Shown: in pieces, positions 5,456 through 33,618 of the stretch
Layout: each line of letters begins with the position of its first letter
Numbering within the stretch: the first letter of the stretch is position 1
NCBI GenBank assembly: GCA_004298325.1
Contig: SCUF01000369.1
Span: forward strand, 1 to 59,519
DNA: 59,519 bases
Reading direction: 5' to 3'
DNA from: Betaproteobacteria bacterium
GTDB lineage: Bacteria; Pseudomonadota; Gammaproteobacteria; Burkholderiales; SG8-39
The notes under the pieces: model-generated
The model's input: only the letters and a program-made list of their open reading frames with translations
The model's database searches: none
Told to the model about the DNA's origin: nothing
Made by a program: the position numbers and the translations under genes

Positions 5456-5457
5456 GC

Positions 5458-13078: not shown

Positions 13079-13332
13079 ATGCATGGCACAGACTGAATAT
13101 TGTGTCTGAATCGCGCCAGCGGGGTGCGCCTGCACAAGGGTGACCGTTACATTTTACAAAGCGGGATCTGTCGGTCGTACTAGAGGAAGGATGGAGGCCG
13201 CCGGGGTGTATTCCTTTGACAGAGGCCATTTGCTTGCCTCGCTTTGATCCTCGACCTCGGCGACAAGGTGCTAGCCTGCGGGTGTCCGCGAAGGCGGCGT
13301 TGAATCGATGGGGGCGATACGGCAAGACCCGC

Positions 13333-15543: not shown

Positions 15544-16182
15544 TCAAGTCAGCTGAAAATTCCTCACGGAAAAAGGGTTGCCCAGCCCCTGTGTGTCGTC
15601 GGGCAGCGCGTGCGTGACCACAGAGCCGATCCCCAGCCGGCAGCGATCGCCGATGGCAACATCGTTTGACAGGAGGGCTCCCGTTCCGAGGAAGCACTCG
15701 GCGCCGATACGGCAGAAACCCGACACCGTGACCGAGGGACTGAGGTAGGACGCTTCGCCGATCCAGACGTCGTGCGCCAGGTTGACCGCAGTATTCAGGA
15801 GTACGCCGCCCTCGATCGCGCAAGCCGGCCCGATCACGACCCCGGGATAGATCGCGCAGCCTCCACCAATCTTCGACGACGGATGGACGTAGGCCGCCGA
15901 GTGCATCAGGGTGGGCAGCTTTCGGCCGCTGCTTCGCAAGGCCTCAAGGACCGAGCGCTTCTTCTGCAGCTGGCGGTAACCGAGAGCCAGATAGAACTCG
16001 CAATCGCCGAAATCGTCGTCTAGATACCGCTCGAAAGGAACAACCGACTTGCCCGCGCGGCCTTCGGCAGGCAAGCCGAAATAGACCGAGCGGAAGCTGC
16101 CGGCGGCGAGCGAAGGCTCCAGCAGCGAAGCCAGTTGTTCGGCAAGCCGGCCGGCGCCGATGTAAGCGATCTTTCTCATCAT
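15544..16182 (-). CDS. NeuD/PglD-family sugar N-acetyltransferase (N-terminal Rossmann-like domain plus LbH)
   Basis: KIAYIGAGRLAEQL is followed by hexapeptide repeats (IGGGCAIYPGVVIGPACAIEGGVLLN..). The ATG at 16182 overlaps the upstream TGA as ATGA. The track ORF extension to 16731 overlaps the upstream gene. Confidence 0.8.
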   Translation of the reverse strand: MMRKIAYIGAGRLAEQLASLLEPSLAAGSFRSVYFGLPAEGRAGKSVVPFERYLDDDFGDCEFYLALGYRQLQKKRSVLEALRSSGRKLPTLMHSAAYVHPSSKIGGGCAIYPGVVIGPACAIEGGVLLNTAVNLAHDVWIGEASYLSPSVTVSGFCRIGAECFLGTGALLSNDVAIGDRCRLGIGSVVTHALPDDTQGLGNPFSVRNFQLT

Positions 16183-17192
16183 TCGGTTGCGCGGTAGACG
16201 AGCCGTGCGCCGAGCCGGTAGGTGGAATATCCGCCCAGCGCCAGGATCACGGCTGCCGAAAGAAAGTGCCACAGGAGCGCCGAGGAAGCCACCACTTCCT
16301 CCGACAGGCCGAAGCCGTAGGCGTACACCAGCACCGGCAACATCTCCGCCGTGCCGAGTTGCGCCGGCGGCGAAGGCAGCACGAACGCCAGATTGAACAG
16401 CGTGGCGGCCACCACCGCCTGCAGCAGGCTCAGCGGCAGGCTGAACGCGTTCAGCAGGAAGAAAAATGTGATGGCGTCGCACAGCAGGAAGAGAAACGAC
16501 AGGGCGAAGACGATCCCGGTTACGCGCCAGCCGTAGCGGGGAAGATGGCAGTTGACGAGCGTCGTTGCGACAAAACCGAAGGCGCGTGACGACACGAGGC
16601 GCTCCACGCGGTCGGAACGAAAACCCAGGCCGGACAGCACCTGCCTCGTGGCCGATGGAAGGCTTCTCCCGATTACGTCGCCCAACAGGAGAAAGATGCA
16701 GCTCGCAACCGCAATCAGCCCGAACACCCACCCGTACTTGGCGGGATCAATGCCCGCAAAGGCGGTTGCAGGATAGACGCTGAACGCCAGCATCAGCGTG
16801 AGCAGGGCCGAAAAGCGGTCGATCAGCGTTGCGGAAACCGAAGTGGCATACGGAACCGCAGCGACGCTTTTCGCGAGGTAGAGGCGAATCACTTCACCCA
16901 TGCGCACGGGAAAAAGGAAGTTCGCCATGTTGGCGGCGAACATGACGTGGAATCCCGCCGTCCAGGTCATCGGCGCGGAAGTTCGCACGATGTAGGTCCA
17001 TTTCACGCAGCGCACCGCGATGGCGACGAGAAAGCTTGCGAGGGAAGAACCGAGAAGGGCCCAGTCTGCCTGCGCAAAATGAGTGATTGCGGCATGGAAA
17101 TCGAAGAAGTACTGGAAGTAGACCCAGAGCAACGCGATCCCGACGGCGATGCCGGCATACTTCGCCCCCGCTCTGCCGGCCGAGGCGGCCAA
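16179..17192 (-). CDS. Flippase-like membrane protein (lysyl-phosphatidylglycerol-synthase TM-region / UPF0104-like)
   Basis: 337 aa with about 8 TM segments. The N-terminus LLWVYFQYFFDFHAAITHFAQADWALL and RCVKWTYIVR recall the LPG_synthase_TM family. The family was assigned from memory. Confidence 0.6.
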   Translation of the reverse strand: MAASAGRAGAKYAGIAVGIALLWVYFQYFFDFHAAITHFAQADWALLGSSLASFLVAIAVRCVKWTYIVRTSAPMTWTAGFHVMFAANMANFLFPVRMGEVIRLYLAKSVAAVPYATSVSATLIDRFSALLTLMLAFSVYPATAFAGIDPAKYGWVFGLIAVASCIFLLLGDVIGRSLPSATRQVLSGLGFRSDRVERLVSSRAFGFVATTLVNCHLPRYGWRVTGIVFALSFLFLLCDAITFFFLLNAFSLPLSLLQAVVAATLFNLAFVLPSPPAQLGTAEMLPVLVYAYGFGLSEEVVASSALLWHFLSAAVILALGGYSTYRLGARLVYRATE

Positions 17193-17193: not shown

Positions 17194-18327
17194 TCAGTTG
17201 CCCATGATTCGCTGGAGCATATCGCAAACCCGGTCCACGTGCTCCATGGGCATATTCGGATAGAAAGGGAGTGATATGAGCTGGTCGCCCAGTTTCTCGG
17301 CCACAGGGAAGTTCCCGGGCATGTGTCCCAAAGTCTTCCTGAAGCAGGTGAGGAGATGTATCGCCCGGTAGTTCACCACTGTCTCGATGCCGGCTGCCTT
17401 GAGATGCTCCAGGACCGCGTCCCGATCCTTGGCGACGATACACACCGGGAAGAGGTGCCGCGCATGCCTCGCGTCCTCCCGCGTGCTCATGACGCTCACT
17501 CCGGGAACGCCCTTCAGCCGCTCCGTATAGCGCTGCGCCAGCGCCTCGCGCTTGCGCAGGTTCGGTTCCAGCCGCTCGAACTGGGGCAGCAGCATCGCCG
17601 CCTGGATGTTGCTGAGGTTGTACTTCCAGCCGAATTCGGGCATGTCCCAGTGCTTGTAGCCCTCGCGGTAGCGGTCGTCCGAGGTCTTGGTCATGCCGTG
17701 GTTGGAGAGAGCCCGGAGAGCGGCAGCGACCTGTTCATGGTCGGTCGCGACCGCTCCTCCTTCGCCGCAGGTGATGTTCTTCGTCGCGAAGAAGCTGAAG
17801 CACGCAGTGTCGCCGAGCTCGCCTGGCCCCACCCCGCCGCGCTTGCCTTCAATGCAATGCGCCGAGTCCTCGACGATGCGCAGTCCGTGCTCGTCGGCGA
17901 TCGCGCGCAAGGCCCTCATGTCGCACATGAGGCCATAGAGATGCACGGGCAGGATGGCCTTGGTCCGTTTGCTGATTGCCGCCTCTACGCGGGCAGCGTC
18001 CAGATTGCCGGTGTCCGGCTCGACGTCGACGAACACTGGCTTGGCTCCGGCCTGGACAATCGCCGTAGAGGAGGCGATGAACGTGAGCGGCGTCGTGATC
18101 ACCTCATCGCCCGGCCCGATGCCGAGCGCAAGCAGCGAGAGATGTATGGCGCCGGTGCAGCTGTTCAGCGCCACAGCCTTGTGTCTGCCGAGGTACTGCG
18201 CGAACTCGCGCTCGAACCTGTAAACGTACTCGCCGGTCGTGAGTATCCTTCCCTTCAGCACCTCCCGGATCTCGGCAAGCTCGCGCTCGCCGAGGTCGTG
18301 GACGTAGAACGGCACGCTGCCGATCAA
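17194..18327 (-). CDS. DegT/DnrJ/EryC1/StrS-family PLP aminotransferase
   Basis: Has NSCTGAIHLSLLALGIGPGDEVI and the FSFFATKNITCGEGGA PLP-lysine region. The start is set at the TTG at 18327, which overlaps the upstream TGA (TTGA) and sits 5 nt after AAGGAG. Confidence 0.85.
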   Translation of the reverse strand: MIGSVPFYVHDLGERELAEIREVLKGRILTTGEYVYRFEREFAQYLGRHKAVALNSCTGAIHLSLLALGIGPGDEVITTPLTFIASSTAIVQAGAKPVFVDVEPDTGNLDAARVEAAISKRTKAILPVHLYGLMCDMRALRAIADEHGLRIVEDSAHCIEGKRGGVGPGELGDTACFSFFATKNITCGEGGAVATDHEQVAAALRALSNHGMTKTSDDRYREGYKHWDMPEFGWKYNLSNIQAAMLLPQFERLEPNLRKREALAQRYTERLKGVPGVSVMSTREDARHARHLFPVCIVAKDRDAVLEHLKAAGIETVVNYRAIHLLTCFRKTLGHMPGNFPVAEKLGDQLISLPFYPNMPMEHVDRVCDMLQRIMGN

Positions 18328-19352
18328 TGCGTCTCCTTGCTGCCGTCCGCCATGACGATCGGGATGTGCCGCATCCAGAGCTGTTCGGTCCACCATTCCC
18401 GGTTTGCCTTGTACCAGTCGACCGTCCTCTTCAGGCCGTCCTCGAATCCGATCAGCGGTTCCCATTGCAGCAGCTCCTTTGCCTTTCTCCAGTCGCAGGT
18501 ATGCCGGAAAACCTGACCCGGCCGGTTGCCGATGTTGACGCGCGAAGCGCCGCCTCCTCCCATGATGCCGATGACGGCCGAGGCGATCTCGTTAATGCTC
18601 ATGTGCCGGCCGCTGCCGAGGTTGATGACCTCTCCCACAACGCGGCCGAGGTCCGCGTTGATGATCAGGTCGAGCGCGCGGCAATGGTCGTCGACGTGGA
18701 GGAAATCCCGCGCCGCCGTTCCGTCGCCATGGATCGCCAGCGGCTCGTTGAGAATCACGCTGGTAATGAACCTCGGCACCACCTTCTCCAGGTGCTGGTA
18801 GGGCCCGAAGTTGTTGAACGGGCGGACGATGATCGCGGGAATCTTGTAGGTCGCCCAGTACGAATAGACCAGCCTGTCCGCCCCACATTTGGCCGCCGCG
18901 TAGGGGCTGAGCGGATTGAGGGGATGGTTCTCGTCCATGGCGGCATGCTGCGCCGTGCCGAACACTTCCGAGGTGGAAATATGGATGAAGCGCTCGACCG
19001 TGCGCTTGTGCTTCAGCACCGAGTTCGCCACCACCTGCGTGCCGAGCACATCGGACTCGAAGAACAGGGCATTGTCGAAGATGGAGCGCGTCACGTGCGA
19101 CTCGGCCGCGAAGTGGACCACCACGTCGGACTTCGCCACCAGGGTGTCCACGAGCTCGGCATTGCGCACGTTGCCGTACCAGAACTCCACCCTGTCGGAG
19201 TCGAGCCAGTGCGCGGGCAGGTTGCGGACGTTGCCGGCGTAGGTGAGGGCATCGAGGATCACAATCCTGCAAGCCGGGTACTTGGCATACACGTGGCGCA
19301 CGAAATTGCTGCCGATGAAACCGGCGCCGCCTGTCACGAGAATGGTGTTCAC
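18324..19352 (-). CDS. NAD-dependent NDP-hexose 4,6-dehydratase (RfbB-like SDR)
   Basis: Has ILVTGGAGFIGSNF, HFAAESHVTRSI, STSEVFG and YAAAK (YxxxK). Confidence 0.8.
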   Translation of the reverse strand: MNTILVTGGAGFIGSNFVRHVYAKYPACRIVILDALTYAGNVRNLPAHWLDSDRVEFWYGNVRNAELVDTLVAKSDVVVHFAAESHVTRSIFDNALFFESDVLGTQVVANSVLKHKRTVERFIHISTSEVFGTAQHAAMDENHPLNPLSPYAAAKCGADRLVYSYWATYKIPAIIVRPFNNFGPYQHLEKVVPRFITSVILNEPLAIHGDGTAARDFLHVDDHCRALDLIINADLGRVVGEVINLGSGRHMSINEIASAVIGIMGGGGASRVNIGNRPGQVFRHTCDWRKAKELLQWEPLIGFEDGLKRTVDWYKANREWWTEQLWMRHIPIVMADGSKETH

Positions 19353-20056
19353 TGCTTCTCCCCAGAATCCTGCCGTTGCCGGAACAGGACCGGACTCTCC
19401 TTTCCAGCGTTCAATATTAGATCAATTGCGGAAAGGTATGGAATGAAGGCGCCGTGCTGCTGCGGATACACCGGATGTCGGTATTCCTGCCATTGCACGC
19501 GGATGCCGTCCGCCTCGAACATCGGCACGTCGAGGTATTCGCGCGCGGCGGGGCCGCTGAGGTAGCTCCCGGCGCCGAAATGCCTGCAGATGTTCAGCAG
19601 CCGGCCGCTCTGCCCGCCGCCGATCCCCAGCGCGGAAGAGCGCACGGTCTTGGTCGCGATGCCAAGCCAGCCGCGCATCAGGTCGATCAGCGCGATATCC
19701 AGTTCCGCGAGCAGGGTCCAGCCGGTCTCGAAGAGACGCTCCAGGTCCCGGAGATAGGGTGGCGCGTGCTCTGCATGTGCGTAGTGCTGCCGCAGCGTGC
19801 CGAGGTGCTTTCGTCTCCAGTCCCTGCTGTTGTCGATCCGGATCTCGTTGACACGCGGCTTGTCCTGGCCCTTGTGCAGCACCGGGACCGTCAGCCATGC
19901 GAATCCACCCGGCACTTTGATGCGGTTCCGGTTGCGCCAGCCGTGTTTGTCGAATTGGACGTCGTCGTAGTAGACGAACACATCGACCGAGGCCATTTGA
20001 TCGAAAAAACCGAGCCACGGCAGGTATCCGGGCTGGAGGATGGCCACCGTCGTCAC
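19349..20056 (-). CDS. WbqC-family protein (function unknown)
   Basis: The N-terminus AILQPGYLPWLGFFDQM and FDKHGWRNRNRIK match my recollection of the WbqC-like family. A 4-nt overlap links it to the downstream dehydratase gene. Confidence 0.7.
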   Translation of the reverse strand: MTTVAILQPGYLPWLGFFDQMASVDVFVYYDDVQFDKHGWRNRNRIKVPGGFAWLTVPVLHKGQDKPRVNEIRIDNSRDWRRKHLGTLRQHYAHAEHAPPYLRDLERLFETGWTLLAELDIALIDLMRGWLGIATKTVRSSALGIGGGQSGRLLNICRHFGAGSYLSGPAAREYLDVPMFEADGIRVQWQEYRHPVYPQQHGAFIPYLSAIDLILNAGKESPVLFRQRQDSGEKQ

Positions 20057-20078
20057 GGCCGTTGCATCCGCAGTCGCA

Positions 20079-21848
20079 TCAGGCGAAATGCCTTTCCCAC
20101 CAGACCTGGAACATGGCGAGATTCCAGATGCGCCCGCCGTTCTGCCGCGCGCCGCCGTAGTGCTCGTCGAGCGTGCGCCTCACGGCCTCGGGTTGCAGCA
20201 GCCCGTGCACCGACAACCGCCGTGGCGAGAGACACTCGCGCACGAACGGCTGGAGTTCGTCGAGCAGCCAGTCGTTGATCGGCAGGACAAACCCTTCCTT
20301 CGGGCGATCGATGATTTCCTCCGGCAGCAGGTCCTTCACCGCCTCCTTGAGGATGTGCTTGGTGCGGGCGCCCTTGATTTTTAGGCTGCCCGGCAGCGAA
20401 GCGGCGAATTCCATCAGGCGATAGTCGAGAAACGGCGTCCGCACCTCCACCGAGCGCGCCATCGACAGCCGGTCCACGAACGCGAGCACCTGGTCGGGCA
20501 ACAGCGATTCGAAATCGACGAACAGCGCCCGGTTGAGCGGGTCGGCCGTGTCTGCACTGTCGAACAGTTTCGATACAAGACTTGCGGTAGAGACGGTGCC
20601 GGACAATGCGCGCATTTTTTCCGAAAAGAACGATTCCTTCTCCTGATCGTCCATCAGATACAGGCGCATGCGGCGGGCCAATTCGTCGCCTTCGGCCAGC
20701 GGCAGCTGGCCGGCAGGCCGCGCCGCCATGCGATGCGCCAGGTAGCTGGCGAAGAGTTCGTCCGCGCCGTCCCCGGACAACGCTACCTTCACGTGCTTCG
20801 ATATCAGGCGCGTCAGGAAGTACGTCGACGTCACGCCGGAGAACGGCTCGTCGAACGAGCCGAGGACGGACTCCACGCCGTCGACCAGTTCCCGCTGCGT
20901 CATCACGTGCTCGCGGTGCTCGGTGCCGTACTGCGTCGATACGCGCCTCGCATACTCGCGGTCCGAGTCCTTGAGCATGTAGTCGCGCTCATAGGTGAGG
21001 GAAAACGTCTTTATGGGGGCCGCCGACTGCCGGCTCATCAGGGCGACCACGCTCGAGCTGTCGAGCCCCCCGGAGAGATAGGCGCCAAACGGCACGTCGC
21101 ATTGCATGCGCAATCGTACGCTGTCCTCCAGCAGGCGCCGGATCTCGGCCGCCGCTCCCGCCTCTTCCACCGGGGCGGTTCCGGCGAAGCTGATTCGCCA
21201 CCAGCGAGTGCGCTTCAACTCCCCTTCCCGGAACACCGCGCGCTCTCCGGCGCGAAGCTGCTCGATGCCATCGAAGGCGCTCCATGGTGCGGGAATATTC
21301 TTGAGGCTGAAATAATGGGTGAGCGCCGCGAAATTCGGCGCCTTGACCACGTCCGGGTGCGCGAGGATCCCCTTGGGTTCGGAGGCGAACCAGAGCCTCC
21401 CCGCGTGCTGGCGCAGGTAGAGCGGCTTTACGCCGGCGCGATCGCGTGCAAGGTGCAATTCGCGCTTGCCGCTGTCCCACAGGACGATTGCGAACATCCC
21501 GTTGAGCTGGTGGAGATAGTCCGCCCCGTATTCCTCGTACAGATGGACCAGTACCTCGGTGTCCGAATGGTCCGAGCGGAACCGGTGTCCCCTGGCCTCC
21601 AGCAGCCGGCGCAGTTCGGCGTGGTTGTAGATCTCGCCGTTGAAAACAACGCAGATGCTCCGGTCCTCGTTGTAGGCGGGCTGGCCGCCCGTCTCGAGGT
21701 CGACGATGGCAAGGCGCCGCATTCCCAGGGAAACGGAAGCATCGACGTGGAAGCCGGAACCGTCGGGGCCGCGATGACGAAGCGATTCCGTCATCCTCTC
21801 GAGCGCGCTGCGGTCGCTAGCGCCGGTGAAACCGCAGATGCCGCACAT
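20079..21848 (-). CDS. Asparagine synthase B-like glutamine-dependent amidotransferase
   Basis: Has the N-terminal MCGICGF Ntn nucleophile and the YLSGGLDSS PP-loop. The 589-aa length fits the family. Confidence 0.85.
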   Translation of the reverse strand: MCGICGFTGASDRSALERMTESLRHRGPDGSGFHVDASVSLGMRRLAIVDLETGGQPAYNEDRSICVVFNGEIYNHAELRRLLEARGHRFRSDHSDTEVLVHLYEEYGADYLHQLNGMFAIVLWDSGKRELHLARDRAGVKPLYLRQHAGRLWFASEPKGILAHPDVVKAPNFAALTHYFSLKNIPAPWSAFDGIEQLRAGERAVFREGELKRTRWWRISFAGTAPVEEAGAAAEIRRLLEDSVRLRMQCDVPFGAYLSGGLDSSSVVALMSRQSAAPIKTFSLTYERDYMLKDSDREYARRVSTQYGTEHREHVMTQRELVDGVESVLGSFDEPFSGVTSTYFLTRLISKHVKVALSGDGADELFASYLAHRMAARPAGQLPLAEGDELARRMRLYLMDDQEKESFFSEKMRALSGTVSTASLVSKLFDSADTADPLNRALFVDFESLLPDQVLAFVDRLSMARSVEVRTPFLDYRLMEFAASLPGSLKIKGARTKHILKEAVKDLLPEEIIDRPKEGFVLPINDWLLDELQPFVRECLSPRRLSVHGLLQPEAVRRTLDEHYGGARQNGGRIWNLAMFQVWWERHFA

Positions 21849-22107
21849 GCCGCAAGGATAGATTGTCTCAGTGTTACTGGTTAGCGGGCCGTCGATATCC
21901 GCGCATTCAAGTCAGCCCGCAGACCGCGGCCAAGTCGACGATACTTATTCTCTTGCATGCTACGATTCCCCGTCCATTGAGAAAGTGTACCAACTTGGTA
22001 GAAATGAACATTGATTGAGACGCCCTCCGTTGACTGCTATCCACACAGAAGCTAACCCGTCGGTTAGAAATTCAGGAAAGAAATACACGCTGGATGCCGC
22101 GCTCGCG

Positions 22108-22986
22108 ATGCCGACGTTCGACCGGAGTGTGTCGGCGCTCTGTTGGGTATACAACGAAGAGCAGCTTATCGGCGAGTACCTCGATCGCCTGCACGCGCTC
22201 ATGCACCGGTCAGTCAGCAATTTCGAGATTGTCGTTATCGACGACTGCAGCACAGACAGCACGGCACGGATCATCGCCGACCGGATGGCACGCTACCCCG
22301 AGATTCACTACTTCCGAAACGAGCGCAACATAGATGTTGGGCCGTCATTTAAACGGGCAGTGCGATATGCAACGAAGGAATTTCTATTCTGGCAGACGGT
22401 GGATTGGTCCTACGACATCTCGCTGCTCAGGCTACATCTCGAATTCCTGCGGGATTTCGACGTTGTTGCAGGTGTTAGGCGAGCTCCAGTGCTTGCTGCC
22501 GATCGGTATTTGAAGCCGCTAATGGGTGTTCTAAAATTGCTTAGCATCAAGCACCTTACGCGACGCTCGGACACACCCTGGAAGGCGTTCGTCTCCGTAG
22601 TCAATTATCTTCTCATTCGTCTGCTCTTCGGGGTCAAGCTCTCCGACTACCAGAATGTCGCGTACTATAGGTCCGCCTTAATTCAGACAATCGACTGGGA
22701 GGCGTCAAGTTCTTTTGTATCGCCGGAAACTCATATCAAAGCCTATTGGCGCGGCGCGCGCATAGTGGAGGTACCGATCAGTTTCCGTCCACGGACAGTT
22801 GGAGAGGGGAAAGGCGTCTCCACTCGTACGATTGCCCGTGCCTTGCGGGACATTTTTAAGTGCTGGATTAGATGGCAACTTCTCGGCCGCGTTGAGCGCG
22901 GCCAGACTATCGAGATTGTGCGTATGGTGGAAGCTGAATGGGACCTGAGCGATAGTGGTTATTGGTCCGAAGCGGGAACTTCGTAG
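22108..22986 (+). CDS. GT2 glycosyltransferase of the DPM1/ArnC/GtrB (polyprenyl-phosphate sugar synthase) type
   Basis: Has VVIDDCSTDST, later LSDYQNV and EVPISFRPRTVGEGKGV (cf. EvPi.f.eR..GeSK). The ATG at 22108 is preferred over the TTG at 22015. Confidence 0.75.
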   Translation: MPTFDRSVSALCWVYNEEQLIGEYLDRLHALMHRSVSNFEIVVIDDCSTDSTARIIADRMARYPEIHYFRNERNIDVGPSFKRAVRYATKEFLFWQTVDWSYDISLLRLHLEFLRDFDVVAGVRRAPVLAADRYLKPLMGVLKLLSIKHLTRRSDTPWKAFVSVVNYLLIRLLFGVKLSDYQNVAYYRSALIQTIDWEASSSFVSPETHIKAYWRGARIVEVPISFRPRTVGEGKGVSTRTIARALRDIFKCWIRWQLLGRVERGQTIEIVRMVEAEWDLSDSGYWSEAGTS

Positions 22987-23191
22987 CTGCTCCTGATTTT
23001 AATGCTCCATGTATCAGCACTGAGTCGCTATATTTCAATTTGTAGTACGGCAAGACGCGTTTACCGCACGGCGGATACAGATGCGGGGCATCGGATTTGC
23101 GGGCACGAAATCGACATAAGTCGCTAATAATTCAAGTATAGTTCGTTCTTGGTGCCCACAAAGACTCGCGATCACGGGTAGGGAGCGGATT

Positions 23192-24235
23192 TTGGCGCAG
23201 AAGAACCCGTATTCGATGTCGCAGGCCCATATCGATAAGCTGCTCGAAATCGAGAGCAACCTGCGCGAGCATGTGTACCCACCGCAACTGGTGGTCGAGA
23301 ATACCTCGGCCTGCAACCAGAAGTGCATTCACTGCTCGCATAGGGAGATGCTGCGCCCGAAGAAGCACATGAAGCGCGAGCTGTGGAACAAAATCGTCGA
23401 GGAACTGGGCCGCGAGAGCCCGGACACCGAGATCTGGCCGACCTTCTACGGTGAAGCGCTGGTGATGGGCAGCGAGATTTGGGACCGCATCGACTACGCG
23501 GCCGAGGTCGGCTGCGCGAACCTTGTTCTCAATTCCAACGCCACCTTGCTGCATCGCAAGGACACCTTCGACCGCATCCTGAATTCGCCGCTCAAGCGAT
23601 TCATCCTCAGCCTCGACGGATTCTCCAAGGAGGTCTACGAGAAGGTGCGCGTGCTCGGCGAATGGGACGTCGTCTACCCCGCCGTGGAGGAACTCCTGCG
23701 GCGCAAGGCGGCGAGCGGCAAGCTTTATCCGGCGATCATCTGCCAGTTCTCGATGATGGAAGACAACGAGCACGAGGTGGAGGCATTTCGGAAGTATTGG
23801 AAGGAGCGCGGCGCCGAGGTCAAGGTGAGGCCGAAGCTCGAATGGACGGCCACGGGGACTGTCCGATCGGACCGCATTGACCACGAGACCTCCTTCCGTA
23901 TCGCCTGCCCCTGGGGCAACAACACGATGGCGATACACCAGGACGGCAGCGTCGTCGCCTGTGCGGTCGACTACGAAGGTCGCCTGAAAGTCGGCAATGC
24001 CAACGAGTTCACGCTGCTCGAACTGTGGCAGCGGCTCGGCGTACAGCTGCGCAAGCTTCACCGCGAGCATAACTGGGACAAGATTCCAGAGATCTGCAAG
24101 GGCTGCCGCGACTGGCAGACCGCGGGTGCCGAGTACGAGGAAGAGATCGTTCCCGGCACGCGGCCTTTCTGGTACCGGAAAAAGACGACGCAGTACAAGG
24201 TATTTCCGGTAAAGGCGGAGTTGCCGTATGGCTGA
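23192..24235 (+). CDS. Radical SAM enzyme with truncated SPASM/twitch-like C-terminal domain
   Basis: Has CNQKCIHC (CX3CX2C), CPWGNNTMAIHQDGSVVAC (CX12GX4C) and CKGC. The TTG start at 23192 lies 6 nt after GGAG, with an alternative ATG at 23216. Confidence 0.8.
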   Translation: MAQKNPYSMSQAHIDKLLEIESNLREHVYPPQLVVENTSACNQKCIHCSHREMLRPKKHMKRELWNKIVEELGRESPDTEIWPTFYGEALVMGSEIWDRIDYAAEVGCANLVLNSNATLLHRKDTFDRILNSPLKRFILSLDGFSKEVYEKVRVLGEWDVVYPAVEELLRRKAASGKLYPAIICQFSMMEDNEHEVEAFRKYWKERGAEVKVRPKLEWTATGTVRSDRIDHETSFRIACPWGNNTMAIHQDGSVVACAVDYEGRLKVGNANEFTLLELWQRLGVQLRKLHREHNWDKIPEICKGCRDWQTAGAEYEEEIVPGTRPFWYRKKTTQYKVFPVKAELPYG

Positions 24236-25304
24236 GCATGTCGTTTCCGTTCCGTTTCCCGCGGTGCCGAAGAAGAAGCGGGAGCAGGTCGTTCATACCC
24301 AGGAGCAATACGGCCTGCGGCCGGAAGCATCCGAGTTCCCAATGATGCTTGTGTTGTCGTTCGTCTATCCATGCAATGCGCTCTGTCCGCACTGCCCGTA
24401 CACGAACTCCAATATTCGAGACACCTACAAGGACGCGCCGTACATGTCGGAGGAGATCTTCAAGAAGATCGCCGACGAATCGGGCCCGCACGGCGCCTAC
24501 CTGCGTATTTCCGGCGGGGGCGAGCCGATGCTGCATCCGCGCTCCTGGGAACTCCTGGTGTACGCAAAATCAATGGGCTGCAAGGTCGGCCTGATCACCA
24601 ACGGCTCCTGCTTTACCGAGCGTAACTCGCGCCTTCTGCTTGAGGCAGGTGTCGATATGATCGAGTTCTCGGTGGATGCCTGCGACGAGAAAACTTATGA
24701 CGTGGTGCGAAAGGGGCTCAAGTGGGAGCGCCTGCTCAAGAACGCACGCCGCATGCTCGCGATGCGCGACAACCTGCGCAGCACCTCCAAAATCATTGCC
24801 TCCGGCGTCGACCAGAAGGGCGTCGACATCGAGGCGGTCGAGCGCTTCTGGCGCGATGAGATGGGCGTCGACAACTTCATCAAGCGCAAATTCCTGACCT
24901 GGGGCGTCAATACCAGCCTCGACTCGTCGCGCTCCGCCGACCCGGCCGCCTACCTGAACACGGACGAAGTGCCTTGCCCGTTCATCTTTGAGCGCCTGAA
25001 CATCGACAGCCGAGGCAACGTAATGGTCTGCGGTTACGACATCTCCGCCAACACCAGCATGGGCATCGTCGGCAAGCAGTCGATCCGCGACATCTGGCAC
25101 GGCGAGGGCTTCCGTTTTTACCGGGAAAAGCACCTCGCCAACCGTGGCTCAGAGATCTTGATGTGTGCGAGTTGCCCTGACTGGAAGTACCGCTCCTGGC
25201 AGCACAACTACTGGAAAGTCGTGGACAATGCGGAAACCGTGCGCCAGCAGAAGATGAGCAAGCTGAGCGAGCACGACGACTTCCAGACGCCGTCGATGGA
25301 GTAG
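24228..25304 (+). CDS. Radical SAM enzyme with truncated SPASM/twitch-like domain (same architecture as the upstream gene)
   Basis: Has CNALCPHC (CX3CX2C), CPFIFERLNIDSRGNVMVC (CX12GX4C) and CASC. The ATG overlaps the upstream gene by 8 nt, with GGAG 7 nt upstream. Confidence 0.8.
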   Translation: MAEHVVSVPFPAVPKKKREQVVHTQEQYGLRPEASEFPMMLVLSFVYPCNALCPHCPYTNSNIRDTYKDAPYMSEEIFKKIADESGPHGAYLRISGGGEPMLHPRSWELLVYAKSMGCKVGLITNGSCFTERNSRLLLEAGVDMIEFSVDACDEKTYDVVRKGLKWERLLKNARRMLAMRDNLRSTSKIIASGVDQKGVDIEAVERFWRDEMGVDNFIKRKFLTWGVNTSLDSSRSADPAAYLNTDEVPCPFIFERLNIDSRGNVMVCGYDISANTSMGIVGKQSIRDIWHGEGFRFYREKHLANRGSEILMCASCPDWKYRSWQHNYWKVVDNAETVRQQKMSKLSEHDDFQTPSME

Positions 25305-25394
25305 CCGCGCTGCGGTTCGGCGCGTTGAGACAAGTCTCCATGCGTCGATGGAAGTGGCTTCCCTCGTCCTTGTTGGGGTTTTTCTTGTGACCAG

Positions 25395-26306
25395 ATGACC
25401 GATTCAATTGAATGGATTTTCGAGCCAGTTCAGGCTTGCCTGATCTGCGGCGGCCAGCAAAGCAGCACCGTCCTGGAAAGAACAATTCGATCGATCCCGC
25501 TTCGTTTCGTGCGCTGCAAAGCATGTAGCCTCGTTTACCAGAATCCCAGGCCGACAAGCGAGACTTTGAAGCGCTACTTCAGTTCCACAACGTTCGTCAA
25601 GGATTCTGACAATGAAGGTTACTCCCTAGACGAGCTCTTGGGCTATCCGGACTATCTGGATTGGGATATCAGCTACAGGAAAAGCGCTTCGCTGCGGCTC
25701 GGGCGCATTGCACGATTTACGCAACCTCCGCGCGAGCTGCTTGAAATTGGAACGGCGACAGGCTCGTTCTTGGCAGCCGCGCGCGCCGCGGGCTATTCAG
25801 TAAGGGGACTTGACGTGTCGGAAACCCTTGCCCGCATTGCGAGGGAAAGATTCGGCCTCGAAATCGACACGGGATTCATTGAAGATTTCCCGCTTCCCGA
25901 ACGGCATTACGATGTCATCTGCGCATTTGGGGGCATTGCCTGCTGGAGTGATCCTGTGCGCGGGCTCGCAAATGTGGCGCGAGCGCTAAAGCCGGGGGGT
26001 CTTCTCGTAATAAATCATCCGAATCTGGATTCGCTCTTCGTTCGCGCTCTGAACAAGCGCTACTTCGAATTCAACCACGCGAGCCTAACGGTGCTATCAA
26101 ATACCACAATGAGACTTTGCCTGGATCGGGCGGGCTTTAGAATTCTGTTCTCAGAGAATGAACGCCAGTTCGCATCGGTTGGCAGGATCGTCAGCTACTT
26201 GAAGCTGAATGCGGCTGCGAGGCTTTCCAAATTCATGCGATTCGCGCACTGGATCGTCCCTGTCATCGCATTTGGAACTACGTTTTCAATCAGTACGACG
26301 AAGTAA
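25395..26306 (+). CDS. Class I SAM-dependent methyltransferase with N-terminal CxxC..CxxC zinc ribbon
   Basis: Has CLICGG..(19 aa)..CKAC, then motif I LLEIGTATGSF and LKPGGLLVINHPN. Confidence 0.7.
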   Translation: MTDSIEWIFEPVQACLICGGQQSSTVLERTIRSIPLRFVRCKACSLVYQNPRPTSETLKRYFSSTTFVKDSDNEGYSLDELLGYPDYLDWDISYRKSASLRLGRIARFTQPPRELLEIGTATGSFLAAARAAGYSVRGLDVSETLARIARERFGLEIDTGFIEDFPLPERHYDVICAFGGIACWSDPVRGLANVARALKPGGLLVINHPNLDSLFVRALNKRYFEFNHASLTVLSNTTMRLCLDRAGFRILFSENERQFASVGRIVSYLKLNAAARLSKFMRFAHWIVPVIAFGTTFSISTTK

Positions 26307-26596: not shown

Positions 26597-26693
26597 GGCC
26601 GGGAGGACCGAGACTCGCAGGCAAACGGTACCAACTCGGGTTGACCCTAACTGCGCGGCGTCAGAATAGTTGCGGAAGGTTGTGGAGGGAGTC

Positions 26694-28508
26694 ATGTGCG
26701 GAATCTTTGGCGTTGTTTCTAAATCGACCGTTTCACCTGCGGATTTGAGATTGCTGGCAACGTGCTCGCAGCAAAGGGGCAAGGATTCGAGCGGGCTCTT
26801 CTTCACTGGACAGGGCGGCTATCGGCTGTATCGCGCAACGGAGGCGATTACGTCGCTGCTGGATACCGTAAATCCGCGCCGATCATCGTTTGTCATGGGT
26901 CACAGCCGCCTGATTACGAATGGCCTGGCCGACAATCAGCCTGTCTACCGTGACTCGGTATGCGTGATTCACAACGGAATTGTCGTCAACCATGACTCGT
27001 TGTGGGAGACCGTAGGCAAGCAGCGCAGACAGGAAATCGATACCGAGATTATTGCGGCAATTGCTGCCCGCGCGCTGGAGAACGGCGAACCTGTCGAAGA
27101 AATTGCCAAGAGTGTGATCTCTCAGTGCAAAGGGGTTGTAGCGTGTGCGGTGGCTCTTCCCCGCCTTGGGCACCTTTGCTTGTTTTCAAACAACGGAAGC
27201 CTGTATCTGGGCGCCAAGGGCGACAGCACCTACTTTGCCTCCGAAAGCTATCCGTTGACGAAGCTTGGATGTGCCGATGTGCGGCAGGTGAGGGACGGCG
27301 TCGTGCTGGACATACCGGCCTCACCAGCAGAAGTCACGATTCAGGAGGTCAATGGCCGCGAGACCAATCTGATCCCTAGCCTTGGCAAACATTCGGGGGA
27401 GGAAAAGCTGCTGGAGTATCGGCCCTGCGTGTCGCGCCGTTGCTCGAAGTGCCTGTTGCCGGAAACCATGCCGTTCATACGCTTTGACCACGAGGGGGTA
27501 TGCAACTACTGCCACCATTACAAGCCACGGAACAGGCCGCGTCCTACAGCGGAATTGTTCAAACTAGTTGAGCCGTATCGCCGTACCCACGGCGACGACT
27601 GCATTGTGCCCTTCTCCGGGGGCCGGGACAGTTGCTACGGTCTGCATCTCATCGTCAATGAACTGAAGATGAAGCCGATCACTTATACATATGACTGGGG
27701 CATGGTGACCGACTTGGGCAGACGGAACATCAGCCGGATGTGTGCCGAGCTTGGTGTCGAGAACATCATTGTGGCCGACGACATTACGAAGAAGCGCAAG
27801 AATATTGCGATGAATCTGAAAGCCTGGTTGAAGTCGCCTCACCTCGGAATGGTAAGCATCCTGACGGCGGGAGATAAGCATTTCTTCAGGCACGTTGAGA
27901 CGGTCAAGGCGCAAACTGGCATCTCCCTGAATTTGTGGGGAGTGAATCCCTTGGAGGTCACACACTTCAAGGCCGGTTTTCTCGGTGTGCCTCCTGATTT
28001 TGAGGAGGAACGCGTCTATTCTCATGGCGCGATGAAGCAGCTCAGGTATCACATGCTGCGCCTGAAGGCGATGCTACAGAGCCCGGGCTACTTCAACAGG
28101 TCTCTGTGGGACACGCTATCCGGAGAGTACTATCGAAGCTTTACCAAGAAGTCCGACTATTACCACATATTCGACTACTGGCGCTGGGACGAGAAGCTCA
28201 TCGATCGCACGCTGGAAAAGTACGAATGGGAGAAGGCACCTGATACCAGGGCGACGTGGCGCATTGGAGACGGCACAGCTGCCTTCTACAACTACGTGTA
28301 CTACTCAGTTGCCGGGTTTAGCGAACACGACACATTCCGCAGCAATCAGATTCGGGAAGGGGATCTGACCCGCGAAGAGGCACTGGCGATGGTCGAGGAT
28401 GAGAACAGACCTCGATATCCCAACATCAAGTGGTATCTGGATGCCATCGGCATGGACTTCGAGGAAGTGATTCAAGTGGTCAACGCCATTCCGAAGCTTT
28501 GCCGCTAG
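26694..28508 (+). CDS. Fusion protein: class-II (Ntn) glutamine amidotransferase domain plus N-acetyl-sugar amidotransferase (WbpG/WbuX-type PP-loop enzyme)
   Basis: Has an MCGIFGV N-terminus (the ATG at 26694 places Cys at position 2) and HNG/ASE glutaminase-like blocks. These are followed by CSKCLLPE..CNYCHHY zinc-ribbon and IVPFSGGRDSCYGLH PP-loop (SGGxDS) motifs. Confidence 0.8.
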   Translation: MCGIFGVVSKSTVSPADLRLLATCSQQRGKDSSGLFFTGQGGYRLYRATEAITSLLDTVNPRRSSFVMGHSRLITNGLADNQPVYRDSVCVIHNGIVVNHDSLWETVGKQRRQEIDTEIIAAIAARALENGEPVEEIAKSVISQCKGVVACAVALPRLGHLCLFSNNGSLYLGAKGDSTYFASESYPLTKLGCADVRQVRDGVVLDIPASPAEVTIQEVNGRETNLIPSLGKHSGEEKLLEYRPCVSRRCSKCLLPETMPFIRFDHEGVCNYCHHYKPRNRPRPTAELFKLVEPYRRTHGDDCIVPFSGGRDSCYGLHLIVNELKMKPITYTYDWGMVTDLGRRNISRMCAELGVENIIVADDITKKRKNIAMNLKAWLKSPHLGMVSILTAGDKHFFRHVETVKAQTGISLNLWGVNPLEVTHFKAGFLGVPPDFEEERVYSHGAMKQLRYHMLRLKAMLQSPGYFNRSLWDTLSGEYYRSFTKKSDYYHIFDYWRWDEKLIDRTLEKYEWEKAPDTRATWRIGDGTAAFYNYVYYSVAGFSEHDTFRSNQIREGDLTREEALAMVEDENRPRYPNIKWYLDAIGMDFEEVIQVVNAIPKLCR

Positions 28509-30461: not shown

Positions 30462-31574
30462 ATGACCACAAGATCCATACCGTTCTTCCCTTACTCGCAA
30501 CTGTTCACTGCACGCGAATCCGATCTCATGGAAGTCATGCGCGATGTCTGTCGTCGCGGCGCATACATCCTGCAGAAGGACTGCAAGGAGTTCGAGGCGA
30601 CGCTGGCGGCGTTCATGGGTGTCAAGCACGCGTTCGGCGTTGCCAACGGCACCGACGCCATCATCATCGGCCTGAAGGCGGTCGGCATCGGGCCCGGTGA
30701 TGAAGTGATCCTGCCCTCGCACACCTACATTGCCACGGCCGCGGCCGTGCACATGGTGGGCGCAACGCCGGTGCTCGCGGAGCCCGGTCCGGACCACATG
30801 CTCGACGCCGCCGACGTCGAGAGGCGCATCACGCCGAAGACCCGGGCCATCATGCCGGTCCAGCTCAACGGCCGGACCTGCGACATGGATGCGCTCGGAG
30901 CGGTCGCTGCCAGGCACAAGCTTGTGATCGTCGAGGACGCGGCGCAGGGCCTCGGGTCGAAGTTCAAGGGCCGCAGCGCCGGGACCATCGGACGCTTCGG
31001 CACGATCAGTTTCTACCCAGCCAAGCTGCTCGGTTGCTTCGGCGACGGCGGCGCCGTCGTGACGAACGATGACGCGGTCGCGGAACGGATCAGCCTGCTG
31101 AAAGACCATGGGCGCAACGCCGACGGCCGCGTCGTCGCTTGGGGCTACAACTCGCGGCTCGACAATCTTCAGGCAGCGATCCTGAATTACAAGATGAAGA
31201 CTTTTCCGGCGGACATCGAGCATCGCCGGCGGGTCGCGGCGCTGTATCAGGCGGGGCTCGGCGACCTGGAGGAGCTGACGCTGCCTCCCGGACCCGAAGC
31301 TGATCCGCGCCATTTCGACGTCTACCAGAACTACGAATTGGAGGCCGACCGGCGCGACGATTTGCGCGCGCACCTAGAGAGCCGCGGCATCCGCACGATC
31401 ATCCAGTGGGCCGGGACGCCGGTGCATCAGTTCCGCGAACTGGGCTTCGCTGTCAGCCTGCCGCGCACGGACGCCTTCTTCAAGCGCTGCTTCATGCTGC
31501 CCATGAACGTGGCGCTGTCCGACGACGATGTCGCGTACATCGTTGCGGCGATCCGCAGTTTCTACGGAAAGTGA
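30462..31574 (+). CDS. DegT/DnrJ/EryC1/StrS-family PLP aminotransferase
   Basis: Has VANGTDAIIIGLKAVGIGPGDEVILP and the ISFYPAKLLGCFGDGGAVVTND region. The start is the ATG at 30462 (MTTRSIPFF). Confidence 0.85.
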   Translation: MTTRSIPFFPYSQLFTARESDLMEVMRDVCRRGAYILQKDCKEFEATLAAFMGVKHAFGVANGTDAIIIGLKAVGIGPGDEVILPSHTYIATAAAVHMVGATPVLAEPGPDHMLDAADVERRITPKTRAIMPVQLNGRTCDMDALGAVAARHKLVIVEDAAQGLGSKFKGRSAGTIGRFGTISFYPAKLLGCFGDGGAVVTNDDAVAERISLLKDHGRNADGRVVAWGYNSRLDNLQAAILNYKMKTFPADIEHRRRVAALYQAGLGDLEELTLPPGPEADPRHFDVYQNYELEADRRDDLRAHLESRGIRTIIQWAGTPVHQFRELGFAVSLPRTDAFFKRCFMLPMNVALSDDDVAYIVAAIRSFYGK

Positions 31575-32632
31575 CGGCGTCGGGCGCCGCACTCGGCCCG
31601 CTCGCGGATCCCGCCTACGGGCACGGGCCGCTGTCGCTCGGCGACACTCCGCCGGAGCGGCTGCGCGGGCAGCTGCACACGATGCTGCGCATCCGGATGG
31701 CCGAGCAGCATCTCGCGCTGATGCGCCGCGACGGACTGATCGGCGGGCCGGTGCACCTCGGCGCCGGGCAGGAAGCCGTCGCCGTGGGCGTCTCGCAATG
31801 GCTGCGCGGCACGGACCGCGTCTTCGGCGGTCATCGTTCCCACTCGCACCTGATTGCGCTGGGCGGCAGCCTGCACGGGCTGTTCGCCGAGGTGCTCGGC
31901 AAGGACACGGGCCTGTCCCGCGGCATGGGCGGCTCGATGCACCTTTGGGATCAGCCGCGCGGATTCTACGGGTCGGTTCCGATCGTGGCGGGCACGGTGC
32001 CGCTGGCGGTCGGTGCGGCGCTCGCAGCACGAATGCAGTCCACTGGCGACGTGGCGGTCGCGTACTTCGGCGACGGCGCGGTGGAAGAGGGCGTCGTCCA
32101 GGAGTCGCTAAATCTTGCGCGCATGCTGAAGGCGCCCGTGCTCTTCGTAGTGGAGAACAACCTGTTCTCCAGCCACATGCACATCTCCCTGCGACAGCCC
32201 TCCAACGCGACGGTGCGCTTCGCGCAGGCGCACGATATCCGCGCCGAACTCGTCGACGGCAACGACGTGGTTGCCGTGCAGGGGGCGGCGGAACGGCTCG
32301 TCGGCCATGCACGGAGGGGCGAGGGGCCTGGGTTCCTCGAGGCTGTGACCTACCGCTGGTACGGACATGTGGACTGGCGCGATGACGTCGACGTCGGCGT
32401 GAACCGTTCGATCGCAGATCTCGAGAACTGGCGCGCGCGCGACCCGATCGGCCGTCTTGCGGCCGCCTTGAAGGCTGCGGGCGAGTGGAGCGACGGGCGG
32501 CACGAAGCCGCGACGATGGAGATCCGCGGCGAGATCGATCAGGCCTGGCAGCAGGCCGTGGCGGATCCCTATCCGGCGCCTGAGGCGCTGCTCGATCGCG
32601 TCTACGCGGCCAGGCGCGCGGCGCGCCCATGA
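31571..32632 (+). CDS. Thiamine-diphosphate-dependent 2-oxoacid dehydrogenase E1 component, alpha subunit-like
   Basis: Has the TPP motif GDGAVEEG..(24)..VENN. The GTG at 31571 overlaps the upstream TGA (GTGA). The track ORF start at 31406 lies inside the aminotransferase gene. Confidence 0.8.
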   Translation: MTASGAALGPLADPAYGHGPLSLGDTPPERLRGQLHTMLRIRMAEQHLALMRRDGLIGGPVHLGAGQEAVAVGVSQWLRGTDRVFGGHRSHSHLIALGGSLHGLFAEVLGKDTGLSRGMGGSMHLWDQPRGFYGSVPIVAGTVPLAVGAALAARMQSTGDVAVAYFGDGAVEEGVVQESLNLARMLKAPVLFVVENNLFSSHMHISLRQPSNATVRFAQAHDIRAELVDGNDVVAVQGAAERLVGHARRGEGPGFLEAVTYRWYGHVDWRDDVDVGVNRSIADLENWRARDPIGRLAAALKAAGEWSDGRHEAATMEIRGEIDQAWQQAVADPYPAPEALLDRVYAARRAARP

Positions 32633-33618
32633 GTTCTGCAACGAATTACAACTACGGTACCGCAATCCTGGCGGCGTTCGAATACCTGCTCGGCCGCTAC
32701 CCGGAAGTGTTCGTCATCGGGCAGGGCCTCTGGAGCCCGTGGTACGTCGGGAATTCGATGACGGCGCTCGACCGGAAGTTCGGGGTCGAGCGGATCATCG
32801 ACACGCCGGTTTCGGAGGCGGCCTGCACGGGCGCCGCGGTCGGAGCCGCGCTCGCCGGCATGCGCCCGATCGTCGTGCATCCACGAATCGACTTCATGCT
32901 CTACGCGATGGACGCGGTGGTGAACCAGGCGGCGAAGTGGTCACACATGGTCGGGGGGCAGGCGCATCCGGGACTGACCGTGCGCGCGATCATCAATCGC
33001 GGCGGCGAGCAGGGCGCGCAGCATTCGCAGGCGCTGCATGCTTGGTTCGCGCACGTGCCGGGACTGCGCGTCGTCATGCCCGCCACCGTTGCCGACGCGC
33101 GCGACCTGCTGATCGCGTCGGTGCTCAGTCCCGACCCGGTCGTCTATATCGACGATCGCTGGCTCTACGACCAGACCGACGACCTGCCGCCGATCGTGGA
33201 GCTCGATCTGGCCGATGTGCGACCCAAGGTGCTGCGGGAAGGGGACGACCTCACGCTGGCGAGCGCCGGACACTCGACGCGGATCGCCCTCGACGCGGCC
33301 ATCCGCCTCGCCGAGCAGGACGTGCGCGCCGAGGTGGTCGACCTGCGCGTCCTGAACCCGATGAATCTGGACGTCGTCATCGAGTCCGTGCGCCGCACGG
33401 GCCGGCTGCTTGCCGTCGACGGCGGATGGCGGACCTGCGGACTCGCAGGCGAGGTTATCGCGCGCGTCAGCGAGGCGATCGCGCCGCGCGAATGGCGGGC
33501 CGCGCCGAAGCGCTTGACGCTTCCCGATGCGCCGGCGCCGACCTCGCGGGTGCTCGAGAGCATCTACTATCCAGGCGTCCCGCAGGCCGTCGCGATCGCC
33601 TGCGAACTCGTTTCCTGA
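32629..33618 (+). CDS. 2-oxoacid dehydrogenase E1 component, beta subunit-like (transketolase-like Pyr and C-terminal domains)
   Basis: Has DTPVSEAACTGAAVGAALAGMRPIV and DLRVLNPMNLD. It overlaps the alpha-subunit gene by 4 nt. Confidence 0.85.
   Translation: MSSATNYNYGTAILAAFEYLLGRYPEVFVIGQGLWSPWYVGNSMTALDRKFGVERIIDTPVSEAACTGAAVGAALAGMRPIVVHPRIDFMLYAMDAVVNQAAKWSHMVGGQAHPGLTVRAIINRGGEQGAQHSQALHAWFAHVPGLRVVMPATVADARDLLIASVLSPDPVVYIDDRWLYDQTDDLPPIVELDLADVRPKVLREGDDLTLASAGHSTRIALDAAIRLAEQDVRAEVVDLRVLNPMNLDVVIESVRRTGRLLAVDGGWRTCGLAGEVIARVSEAIAPREWRAAPKRLTLPDAPAPTSRVLESIYYPGVPQAVAIACELVS

Follow-up and report, generated by a model that had tools for sequence, protein, structure and literature searches.

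Which partners serve a pair of radical S-adenosylmethionine (SAM) enzymes encoded in a bacterial surface-glycan locus, and what chemistry could such a pair contribute there? The question is raised by a 59,519-nucleotide stretch of DNA from a Betaproteobacteria bacterium (assembly GCA_004298325.1, contig SCUF01000369.1, positions 1 to 59,519; hereafter the window), in which the genes of two radical SAM proteins, here named rSAM-A and rSAM-B, lie side by side among glycan genes. A sequence-only reading had joined them to a flanking GT2 glycosyltransferase and a zinc-ribbon methyltransferase in a four-gene cassette. Comparison with homologous loci gives a different grouping. The conserved unit consists of seven functions, namely rSAM-A, rSAM-B, an AsnB-like amidotransferase, a WbqC-family protein, an RmlB-like dehydratase, a DegT-family aminotransferase and an N-acyltransferase; the GT2 and the methyltransferase are accessory and do not belong to its core. 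The conserved partners are encoded on the minus strand of the window, divergent from the GT2 gene and outside the segment considered in the sequence-only reading. The genes concerned are:

22108..22986, plus strand: GT2 glycosyltransferase (PF00535, E 1.8e-19; reading frame open from 22015)
23192..24235, plus strand: rSAM-A radical SAM enzyme, 347 aa (PF04055 and PF13186)
24228..25304, plus strand: rSAM-B radical SAM enzyme, 358 aa (PF04055 and PF13186)
25395..26306, plus strand: class I SAM methyltransferase, 303 aa (PF13489, E 1.8e-18)
21849..22107: intergenic stretch between the divergent AsnB operon (minus strand) and GT2/rSAM operon (plus strand), presumed from the gene layout to hold promoters
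20079..21848, minus strand: AsnB-like glutamine-dependent amidotransferase, 589 aa (PF00733 and GATase domains)
19349..20056, minus strand: WbqC-family protein, 235 aa (PF08889, E 2e-76)
18324..19352, minus strand: RmlB-like NDP-hexose 4,6-dehydratase, 342 aa (closest PDB entries are dTDP-glucose 4,6-dehydratases)
17194..18465, minus strand: DegT-family sugar aminotransferase (PF01041, E 1e-121)
16179..17192, minus strand: LPG_synthase_TM-family membrane protein (PF03706, E 1.7e-34)
15544..16182, minus strand: hexapeptide (LbH) N-acetyltransferase of PglD/NeuD-like build, 212 aa (Hexapep, E 5e-14; starts MMRKIAY)

The unit was delineated in 80 loci obtained by a scan of species-representative genomes, the open reading frames (ORFs) of each locus being scored against the window proteins. 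rSAM-A is present at 50% identity or more in 42 loci, 24 of which are well flanked, with at least 8 kb on both sides. Among these 24, rSAM-B and an N-acyltransferase (GNAT and/or formyltransferase) are each found in 23, the SDR-type dehydratase in 22, DegT and the AsnB-like protein in 21 each, and WbqC in 20. A GT2 orthologue accompanies the pair in only 4 of the 24 and a methyltransferase orthologue in none (7 and 3 of 43 loci, respectively, when counted by phmmer), and the proposed four-gene cassette does not recur elsewhere. The first three contexts, from a Rhodocyclaceae metagenome-assembled genome (MAG), a Methylobacter MAG and Magnetospirillum, share one gene string of rSAM-A, rSAM-B, AsnB-like, GNAT/formyltransferase, WbqC, SDR dehydratase and DegT genes. 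The canonical gene order is retained in 12 loci, and the loci come from Alpha-, Beta-, Gamma- and Epsilonproteobacteria, Nitrospirae, Marinimicrobia, Methylomirabilota, SAR11 and other taxa. As a control, none of the 15 loci with rSAM relatives below 30% identity holds any of these partners. The reverse comparison agrees: when two WbqC homologues (about 60% identical) were picked irrespective of their surroundings, both turned out to adjoin two radical SAM/SPASM genes. Close relatives of the window (rSAM-A 87-90% identical) have different immediate neighbours, which indicates that the two rSAM genes travel together as a block inside a common pathway.

The association with glycan loci, part of the sequence-only reading, extends to homologues down to 33% identity, which lie in glycan or flagellin-glycosylation loci; in the loci examined none of them adjoins precursor peptides, sulfatases or cofactor genes. 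Genes for cobalamin-binding (B12) radical SAM proteins also occur in several glycan loci (L003, 1..1243 and 20009..21038; L091, 2979..4577); environmental polysaccharide loci may encode radical SAM enzymes more often than had been assumed.

ORFs and Pfam matches agree on the four co-directional plus-strand genes described before, and the reported 8-nt overlap between rSAM-A and rSAM-B is exact in the window; it is also found in L001 (Rhodocyclaceae), L003 (Methylobacter) and L089, a close relative of the window. The start codon of rSAM-A is TTG, with AGGGAG 8 nt upstream. The four genes had further been placed in a lower-GC block. This block is real (0.535-0.60 per kb, compared to 0.62-0.70 in the flanks) but heterogeneous, as both rSAM genes have a host-like GC content at third codon positions (GC3) of 0.83-0.84; the codon-usage outliers by GC3 are the GT2 gene (0.62), the methyltransferase gene (0.61) and the WbuX-fusion gene described below (0.69). 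On the minus strand the DegT ORF overlaps the dehydratase gene, and the true DegT start is therefore probably downstream of 18465. A promoter and terminator scan gave counts no higher than in shuffled sequence, with no consensus promoter above chance in 21849..22107, and Rfam returned no RNA element on 21800-26700 at E up to 1.

Both rSAM proteins belong to the radical SAM superfamily, with PF04055 scores of 39.0 (rSAM-A) and 61.5 bits (rSAM-B) against a cut-off of 29.5, and both match the SPASM model PF13186 (39.5 and 37.4 bits; cut-off 21.5). In rSAM-A the core cysteines C41/C45/C48 are followed by C239-X12-G-X4-C257 and C302-X2-C305, and in rSAM-B C49/C53/C56 are followed by C250-X12-G-X4-C268 and C313-X2-C316. 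The CX3CX2C motif and the identical auxiliary pattern (CX12GX4C ... CX2C) reported for the two are hence present, and they are kept in orthologues: C41, C45, C48, C108, C239, C257, C302 and C305 are all invariant in 54 homologues of rSAM-A, while in 36 orthologues of rSAM-B C118, C250, C268, C313 and C316 are invariant and C49/C53/C56 are retained in 94%. The spacing of the C-terminal cysteines (18/45/3) is the same in both proteins, and C268, C313 and C316 of rSAM-B align with the auxiliary-cluster cysteines of BtrN. The full SPASM seven-cysteine motif (CX9-15GX4C ... CX2CX5CX3C ... C) is not found, as there are four C-terminal cysteines only. Because no CX5CX3C follows the CX2C, these four cysteines point to the twitch type with one predicted auxiliary cluster rather than to a full SPASM domain. 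At the level of sequence, both proteins have the BtrN-type twitch pattern (CX17C, about 44 residues, CX2C), and cysteine count, spacing and the BtrN alignment all agree with the truncated SPASM/twitch-type domain that had been suggested.

rSAM-A and rSAM-B align over 294 residues at 21% identity (E 3e-18); their cysteines are colinear and, judged by this alignment, the two are old paralogues. The AlphaFold2 (AF2) model of rSAM-A has a predicted local distance difference test score (pLDDT) of 90. Only about 30 residues precede the radical SAM core, and a peptide-recognition domain is absent. C108 of rSAM-A and C118 of rSAM-B were considered as catalytic hydrogen-donor cysteines and set aside, because, to judge by sequence position, they seem to lie where a barrel strand begins.

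Searches for relatives return 572 homologue clusters for rSAM-A and 1424 for rSAM-B; the top 120 carry generic names only and are 64-93% and 71-94% identical, respectively. In a library clustered at 50% identity, rSAM-A has essentially one full-length cluster near the top (559 bits), followed by matches of at most 307 bits, several of which are fragments. The wider clade counts 455 representatives at E up to 1e-30. No NCBIfam model scores above its cut-off for either protein, the values for rSAM-A and rSAM-B being 32.9 and 60.5 bits against 170 for the twitch domain-containing radical SAM protein (NF033640), 71.4 and 41.5 against 250 for spiro-SPASM (TIGR04321), and 68.4 and 78.0 against 380 for the W-cofactor maturase (TIGR04317). 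A plasmid collection holds no close relative of rSAM-A (best 27% identity). A full-text literature search, which covered few subscription journals so that prior work is possible, found no paper naming rSAM-A, rSAM-B or the twin-rSAM gene set.

The nearest solved structures by sequence are BtrN for the C-terminal domain and BlsE for the core, with DesII and SpeY weaker. Foldseek with the rSAM-A model retrieves SuiB, CteB, SkfB, BtrN, BlsE, anSME, DesII, EpeE and SpeY, all at 18% identity or less. The proposed likeness to sugar-acting radical SAM enzymes holds in that BtrN, BlsE, DesII and SpeY are among the closest solved relatives. As far as sequence similarity places it, the pair resembles the sugar-acting twitch enzymes but is outside the BtrN, SpeY, BlsE and DesII families.

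The closest parallel in architecture is with BtrN, the 2-deoxy-scyllo-inosamine dehydrogenase of butirosin biosynthesis (4m7t), and SpeY (7wzv). These enzymes have the same radical SAM core and a single auxiliary [4Fe-4S] site (CX17C-X44-CX2C), a site that is predicted for the window proteins, and they act on an amino-cyclitol or sugar-like substrate in a pathway with a DegT-family aminotransferase. However, identity is about 16%, and similarity is significant in the C-terminal domain only (E 3e-5 and 7e-9; i-Evalue 0.68 for the BtrN core). The window proteins are furthermore about 100 residues longer, form a coupled pair, and are associated with AsnB, WbqC and an N-acyltransferase in surface-glycan loci instead of antibiotic clusters. 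BlsE, the cytosylglucuronate decarboxylase of blasticidin S biosynthesis (7vob), is the best sequence match to the rSAM-B core (E 9e-9) and is likewise a sugar-acting SPASM/twitch type with a transamination afterwards. It differs in that its substrate is a nucleoside uronic acid and it has no paired paralogue, and the match to TIGR04466 reaches 47 against a cut-off of 400. The desosamine enzymes DesIV, DesI and DesII follow the same pathway logic, in which an RmlB-type dehydratase and a DegT 4-aminotransferase precede a radical SAM enzyme acting on a TDP-4-amino-4,6-dideoxyhexose, although DesII is without a twitch auxiliary cluster and only 12-14% identical. DesII removes the amine, whereas the module keeps an N-acyltransferase, which implies that the amine is retained here. 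The SPASM peptide maturases anSME, SuiB, CteB and SkfB share the overall fold, the top Foldseek ranks and the Pfam SPASM match, but they have the seven-cysteine motif and two auxiliary clusters (SkfB excepted), peptide or protein substrates and often peptide-recognition domains.

Of the partner enzymes, the dehydratase is most similar in the PDB to DesIV (1r66, 260 bits), and its orthologues are 56-68% identical across loci. In the PDB, DegT best matches two 4-aminotransferases, ArnB (250 bits) and perosamine synthase (229 bits). The acyltransferase slot varies by lineage, being filled by the LbH protein in the window and by a GNAT or formyltransferase elsewhere; all three are classic types of NDP-amino-sugar N-acyltransferase. 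The AsnB-like protein, whose orthologues are 50-62% identical and usually encoded directly after rSAM-B, begins with MCGICG. It thus retains the N-terminal cysteine of glutamine-hydrolysing amidotransferases and should amidate a carboxylate.

WbqC has more than 5000 homologue clusters, no NCBIfam match at all, and is called only uncharacterised in the literature searched. Its AF2 model (pLDDT 92) has no significant counterpart in the PDB by sequence, profile or Foldseek, with weak matches to HUP-class nucleotide-binding folds, and the model suggests that the fold of the family may not yet have been solved. WbqC proteins of 40% identity occur without rSAM genes next to PIG-L deacetylases, in a Bacillus cereus plasmid amino-sugar cluster and in a pseudaminic-acid cluster, a neighbourhood that suggests a role in changing the N-substituent of an amino sugar. 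The name wbqC may go back to the E. coli O121 cluster (N-acetylglycyl-Qui4N), an origin not used as evidence here.

Gene fusions connect the radical step with acylation. In Sulfurospirillum (L037 and L038; 10986..12407, 473 aa) rSAM-B begins with a fused GNAT domain, and the wider clade includes an rSAM protein with a C-terminal GNAT domain (P0392) and one with an N-terminal hexapeptide LbH domain (P0458). Independent fusions to two acyltransferase folds point to a radical step and an N-acylation on the same molecule. Between rSAM-A and rSAM-B lies an ORF matching a formyltransferase model in L040 and L041, and another ORF, of 161 aa, in L036.

Flagellin glycosylation provides a second recurring setting. 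Genes for Maf-type (MptE-like) flagellin glycosyltransferases adjoin rSAM genes in Sulfurospirillum (L038, 3045..4943) and in Lachnospiraceae (L065, 3125..5032), and in these organisms the product may decorate flagellin rather than an O-antigen. Lachnospiraceae have a single rSAM-A relative (33-39% identical) in flagellin/nonulosonate islands, between DegT and a PglD-like acetyltransferase and with PseB-like, cytidylyltransferase, ATP-grasp and metallophosphoesterase genes nearby. That even distant relatives occupy such contexts suggests that the whole clade is tied to amino-sugar tailoring. A sub-block of twitch rSAM, short SDR, metallophosphoesterase, ATP-grasp and hexapeptide acyltransferase genes recurs in these islands (L052, 9929..14171; L065, 9995..14187) and represents a different partner set for the distant rSAM relatives.

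On balance we consider it somewhat probable that the module performs two radical SAM steps on a nucleotide-linked amino-dideoxyhexose derivative, coupled to N-acylation, with AsnB and WbqC adding an amide-bearing group. We infer the substrate, the order of the steps and the type of reaction as follows. The RmlB-like enzyme would convert an NDP-hexose to the NDP-4-keto-6-deoxyhexose, from which DegT would form an NDP-amino-dideoxyhexose, most likely the 4-amino-4,6-dideoxy compound. The N-acyltransferase, of LbH type in the window, would cap an amine. Each rSAM enzyme would then generate a 5'-deoxyadenosyl radical that removes a hydrogen atom from either the sugar or its N-substituent, giving two successive radical steps, with the fully cysteine-ligated auxiliary cluster as a predicted electron conduit. 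The AsnB-like protein and WbqC would add or amidate a carboxyl-bearing substituent. By analogy with BtrN and SpeY, a carbinol-to-ketone oxidation is a tentative first choice for the radical steps, followed by epimerisation as second choice. The resulting order would resemble the oxidise, transaminate and acetylate logic of WbpB/WbpE/WbpD, except that the oxidation, if it is one, would be carried out by a radical SAM enzyme rather than an NAD-dependent one.

Delivery in the window may be achieved by the GT2, handing the finished sugar to polyprenyl phosphate, and by the LPG_synthase_TM protein, flipping it, and the zinc-ribbon methyltransferase may add a methyl group. The LPG_synthase_TM protein, a possible lipid-linked sugar flippase, is itself accessory: 8 of the 43 module loci encode it, the Methylobacter locus (L003/L013) among them. 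Most other loci are without the GT2, LPG_synthase_TM and methyltransferase genes of this delivery layer. The accessory layer is comparable to the Arn pathway (ArnA/B/C/E/F/T), with its DegT-derived amine, N-formyl or N-acetyl cap, GT2 transfer onto polyprenyl phosphate and membrane flippase; the dehydratase of the window, however, is RmlB-like and not ArnA-like.

Several points weigh against this pathway. A 6-deoxyhexose offers no obvious carboxylate for the AsnB-like enzyme to amidate, and the roles given to AsnB and WbqC are guesses. By score, action of DegT at C4 rather than C3 is only weakly favoured, 4-aminotransferases leading 3-aminotransferases by a modest margin. A nucleotidyltransferase gene, which would indicate the nucleotide carrier, was not detected in the window. 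L036-L038, from Epsilonproteobacteria, are without DegT or WbqC at the thresholds used, so the amino-sugar route may not be universal. No solved glycan structure could be linked to an organism with the module. Finally, the peptide-modifying SuiB, CteB, SkfB and anSME rank as high as the sugar enzymes in both fold and sequence, and homology alone therefore does not settle whether the substrate is a small molecule or a peptide.

The alternative that fares best, although we regard it as unlikely, places the radical chemistry on an N-acyl substituent that resembles an amino acid and would be joined to the sugar amine by WbqC and amidated by the AsnB-like protein. The radical steps could be an alpha-carbon epimerisation (EpeE/PoyD-type) or a side-chain crosslink, with the GNAT or formyltransferase capping the alpha-amine. 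Such a substituent would supply the carboxylate that AsnB requires and that is missing from a 6-deoxy sugar. Re-acylation of a sugar amine would fit the WbqC genes that adjoin PIG-L deacetylases and amino-sugar genes in clusters free of rSAM, and the WbqC model has weak matches to HUP-class nucleotide-binding folds only. The epimerase EpeE is among the fold matches, and the GNATs of the module are of the Acetyltransf_3 (RimL-like) type. However, PglD-like, GNAT and formyltransferase proteins are also classic direct N-acyltransferases of NDP-amino sugars. WbqC has neither a demonstrated activity nor a significant structural neighbour, and the sole invariant non-ligand cysteine, C108/C118, appears from its sequence position to lie away from the usual active-site end.

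An improbable alternative is the unit originally proposed, in which the GT2, both rSAM enzymes and the methyltransferase would act jointly at the membrane on a polyprenyl-phosphate-linked sugar. The four genes are adjacent and co-directional, an LPG_synthase_TM gene is nearby, and GT2 orthologues do recur in 7 of 43 loci. PF00535 and DPMS/ArnC-like features make the GT2 a candidate polyprenyl-phosphate-sugar synthase, but the family matches are weak and partial (dolichyl-P hexose transferase, residues 172-233; ArnC; DPMS). Its ArnC equivalog score is 28 against a cut-off of 529, and no C-terminal transmembrane segment is recognisable by eye (no computed prediction was made). For the methyltransferase, the zinc ribbon described as CxxC-19-CxxC is in fact CxxC-22-CxxC (C15, C18, C41, C44), no NCBIfam model scores above cut-off, and a motif C..CGLVY.NP is common to this protein and to methyltransferases in L026 and L087. 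The suggested kinship of its N-terminus with the zinc domain of NDP-hexose C-methyltransferases is not borne out (PF08421 14.8 bits against 31.3, E 0.034). A role as a sugar C-methyltransferase of TylC3 type was rejected on this sub-threshold score, the lack of a Methyltransf_14 match and matches to generic class I models only. Against joint action at the membrane, most loci with the rSAM pair have neither GT2 nor methyltransferase, the neighbours change even between close relatives, and the foreign-looking GC3 is found in the GT2 and methyltransferase genes and not in the rSAM genes. Nor is a membrane segment recognisable in either rSAM protein by eye, again with no computed prediction.

More improbable still is a role of the pair as protein maturases that modify AsnB or WbqC, as anSME does for sulfatases. 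The pair strictly co-occurs with these two proteins, most members of the SPASM family are generally known to act on peptides or proteins, and W_rSAM_matur and rSAM_Geo_metal are among the best sub-threshold NCBIfam matches. These maturase matches, however, reach 68-78 bits against cut-offs of 380-400, and the four-cysteine twitch pattern is that of small-molecule enzymes. With some 30 residues ahead of the core there is no peptide-recognition domain, the fusion partners are acyltransferases and not putative target proteins, and distant relatives occur without AsnB or WbqC. Maturation of a ribosomally synthesised and post-translationally modified peptide (RiPP) encoded beside the pair, which the SPASM-domain matches and a 41-codon ORF at 23002..23127 had brought into consideration, can be dismissed as very improbable: when the 400 nt preceding rSAM-A were scanned in 39 other loci, no shared peptide, no conserved small ORF and no counterpart of the 41-codon ORF emerged, the upstream gene ends right at rSAM-A in several loci, the module is without a RiPP recognition domain, protease or exporter, and every locus examined has a glycan-gene context.

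The remainder of the window contains further glycan genes and the edge of the locus:

1187..7059: a WbpA/B/D/E-like set of a UDP-sugar 6-dehydrogenase, two GFO/IDH/MocA oxidoreductases, two hexapeptide acyltransferases and a DegT protein
11720..13078 and 13216..15168: two large ORFs without a Pfam match, flanked by the Wzx flippase and acetyltransferase genes
26670..28508: a 612-aa protein in which a class II glutamine amidotransferase domain is fused to a WbuX-type N-acetyl-sugar amidotransferase
31406..33618: a thiamine-diphosphate E1 alpha/beta pair (E1_dh, then Transket_pyr and Transketolase_C)
44389..45603: a PIN-domain gene and an IS200-type Y1 transposase, forming the right edge of the glycan region

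The first set suggests that the same polysaccharide contains a 2,3-diacetamido-2,3-dideoxy-uronic acid. The two ORFs without a Pfam match may encode Wzy or another membrane glycan enzyme, the 11720..13078 ORF having only a sub-threshold match to an O-antigen polymerase model. The fusion protein scores 130 bits with TIGR03573, under the cut-off of 203, and may be a self-contained acetamidino-forming enzyme. The E1 pair, unusual in a polysaccharide cluster, is situated inside the glycan locus between a second DegT gene and the initiating sugar transferase. Past the right edge follow genes of unrelated metabolism (hydantoinase A/B, thiolase, acyl-CoA ligase and B12 mutase).

New in this system are the coupled twitch pair, its fixed partnership with AsnB and WbqC, and its occurrence among primary surface-glycan and flagellin genes of many phyla. 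To our knowledge, only BtrN, SpeY, BlsE and a handful of other twitch radical SAM enzymes act on sugars, and all come from antibiotic pathways; the module would be a paired version within primary cell-surface glycan synthesis. A bolder possibility, advanced here only tentatively, is that the conserved set makes a sugar undescribed in any glycan by rSAM chemistry that is new for nucleotide sugars, for example a C-H functionalisation creating a carboxyl or amide branch for AsnB. WbqC would then be a new enzyme fold, and the product would be carried by O-antigens, exopolysaccharides and flagellins across phyla, including those of methanotrophs, SAR11 and Campylobacterales. Being conserved at 52-93% identity across many phyla and present in cultured carriers (Methylocapsa acidiphila B2, Methylocapsa polymorpha RX1 and Dongia sedimenti), the module is directly testable. 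Once its chemistry is solved, the WbqC family, a dedicated AsnB paralogue and two radical SAM families that so far lack a name would have a function, and a new bacterial sugar of relevance to serotyping, to phage and immune recognition and to flagellin glycosylation would probably emerge.

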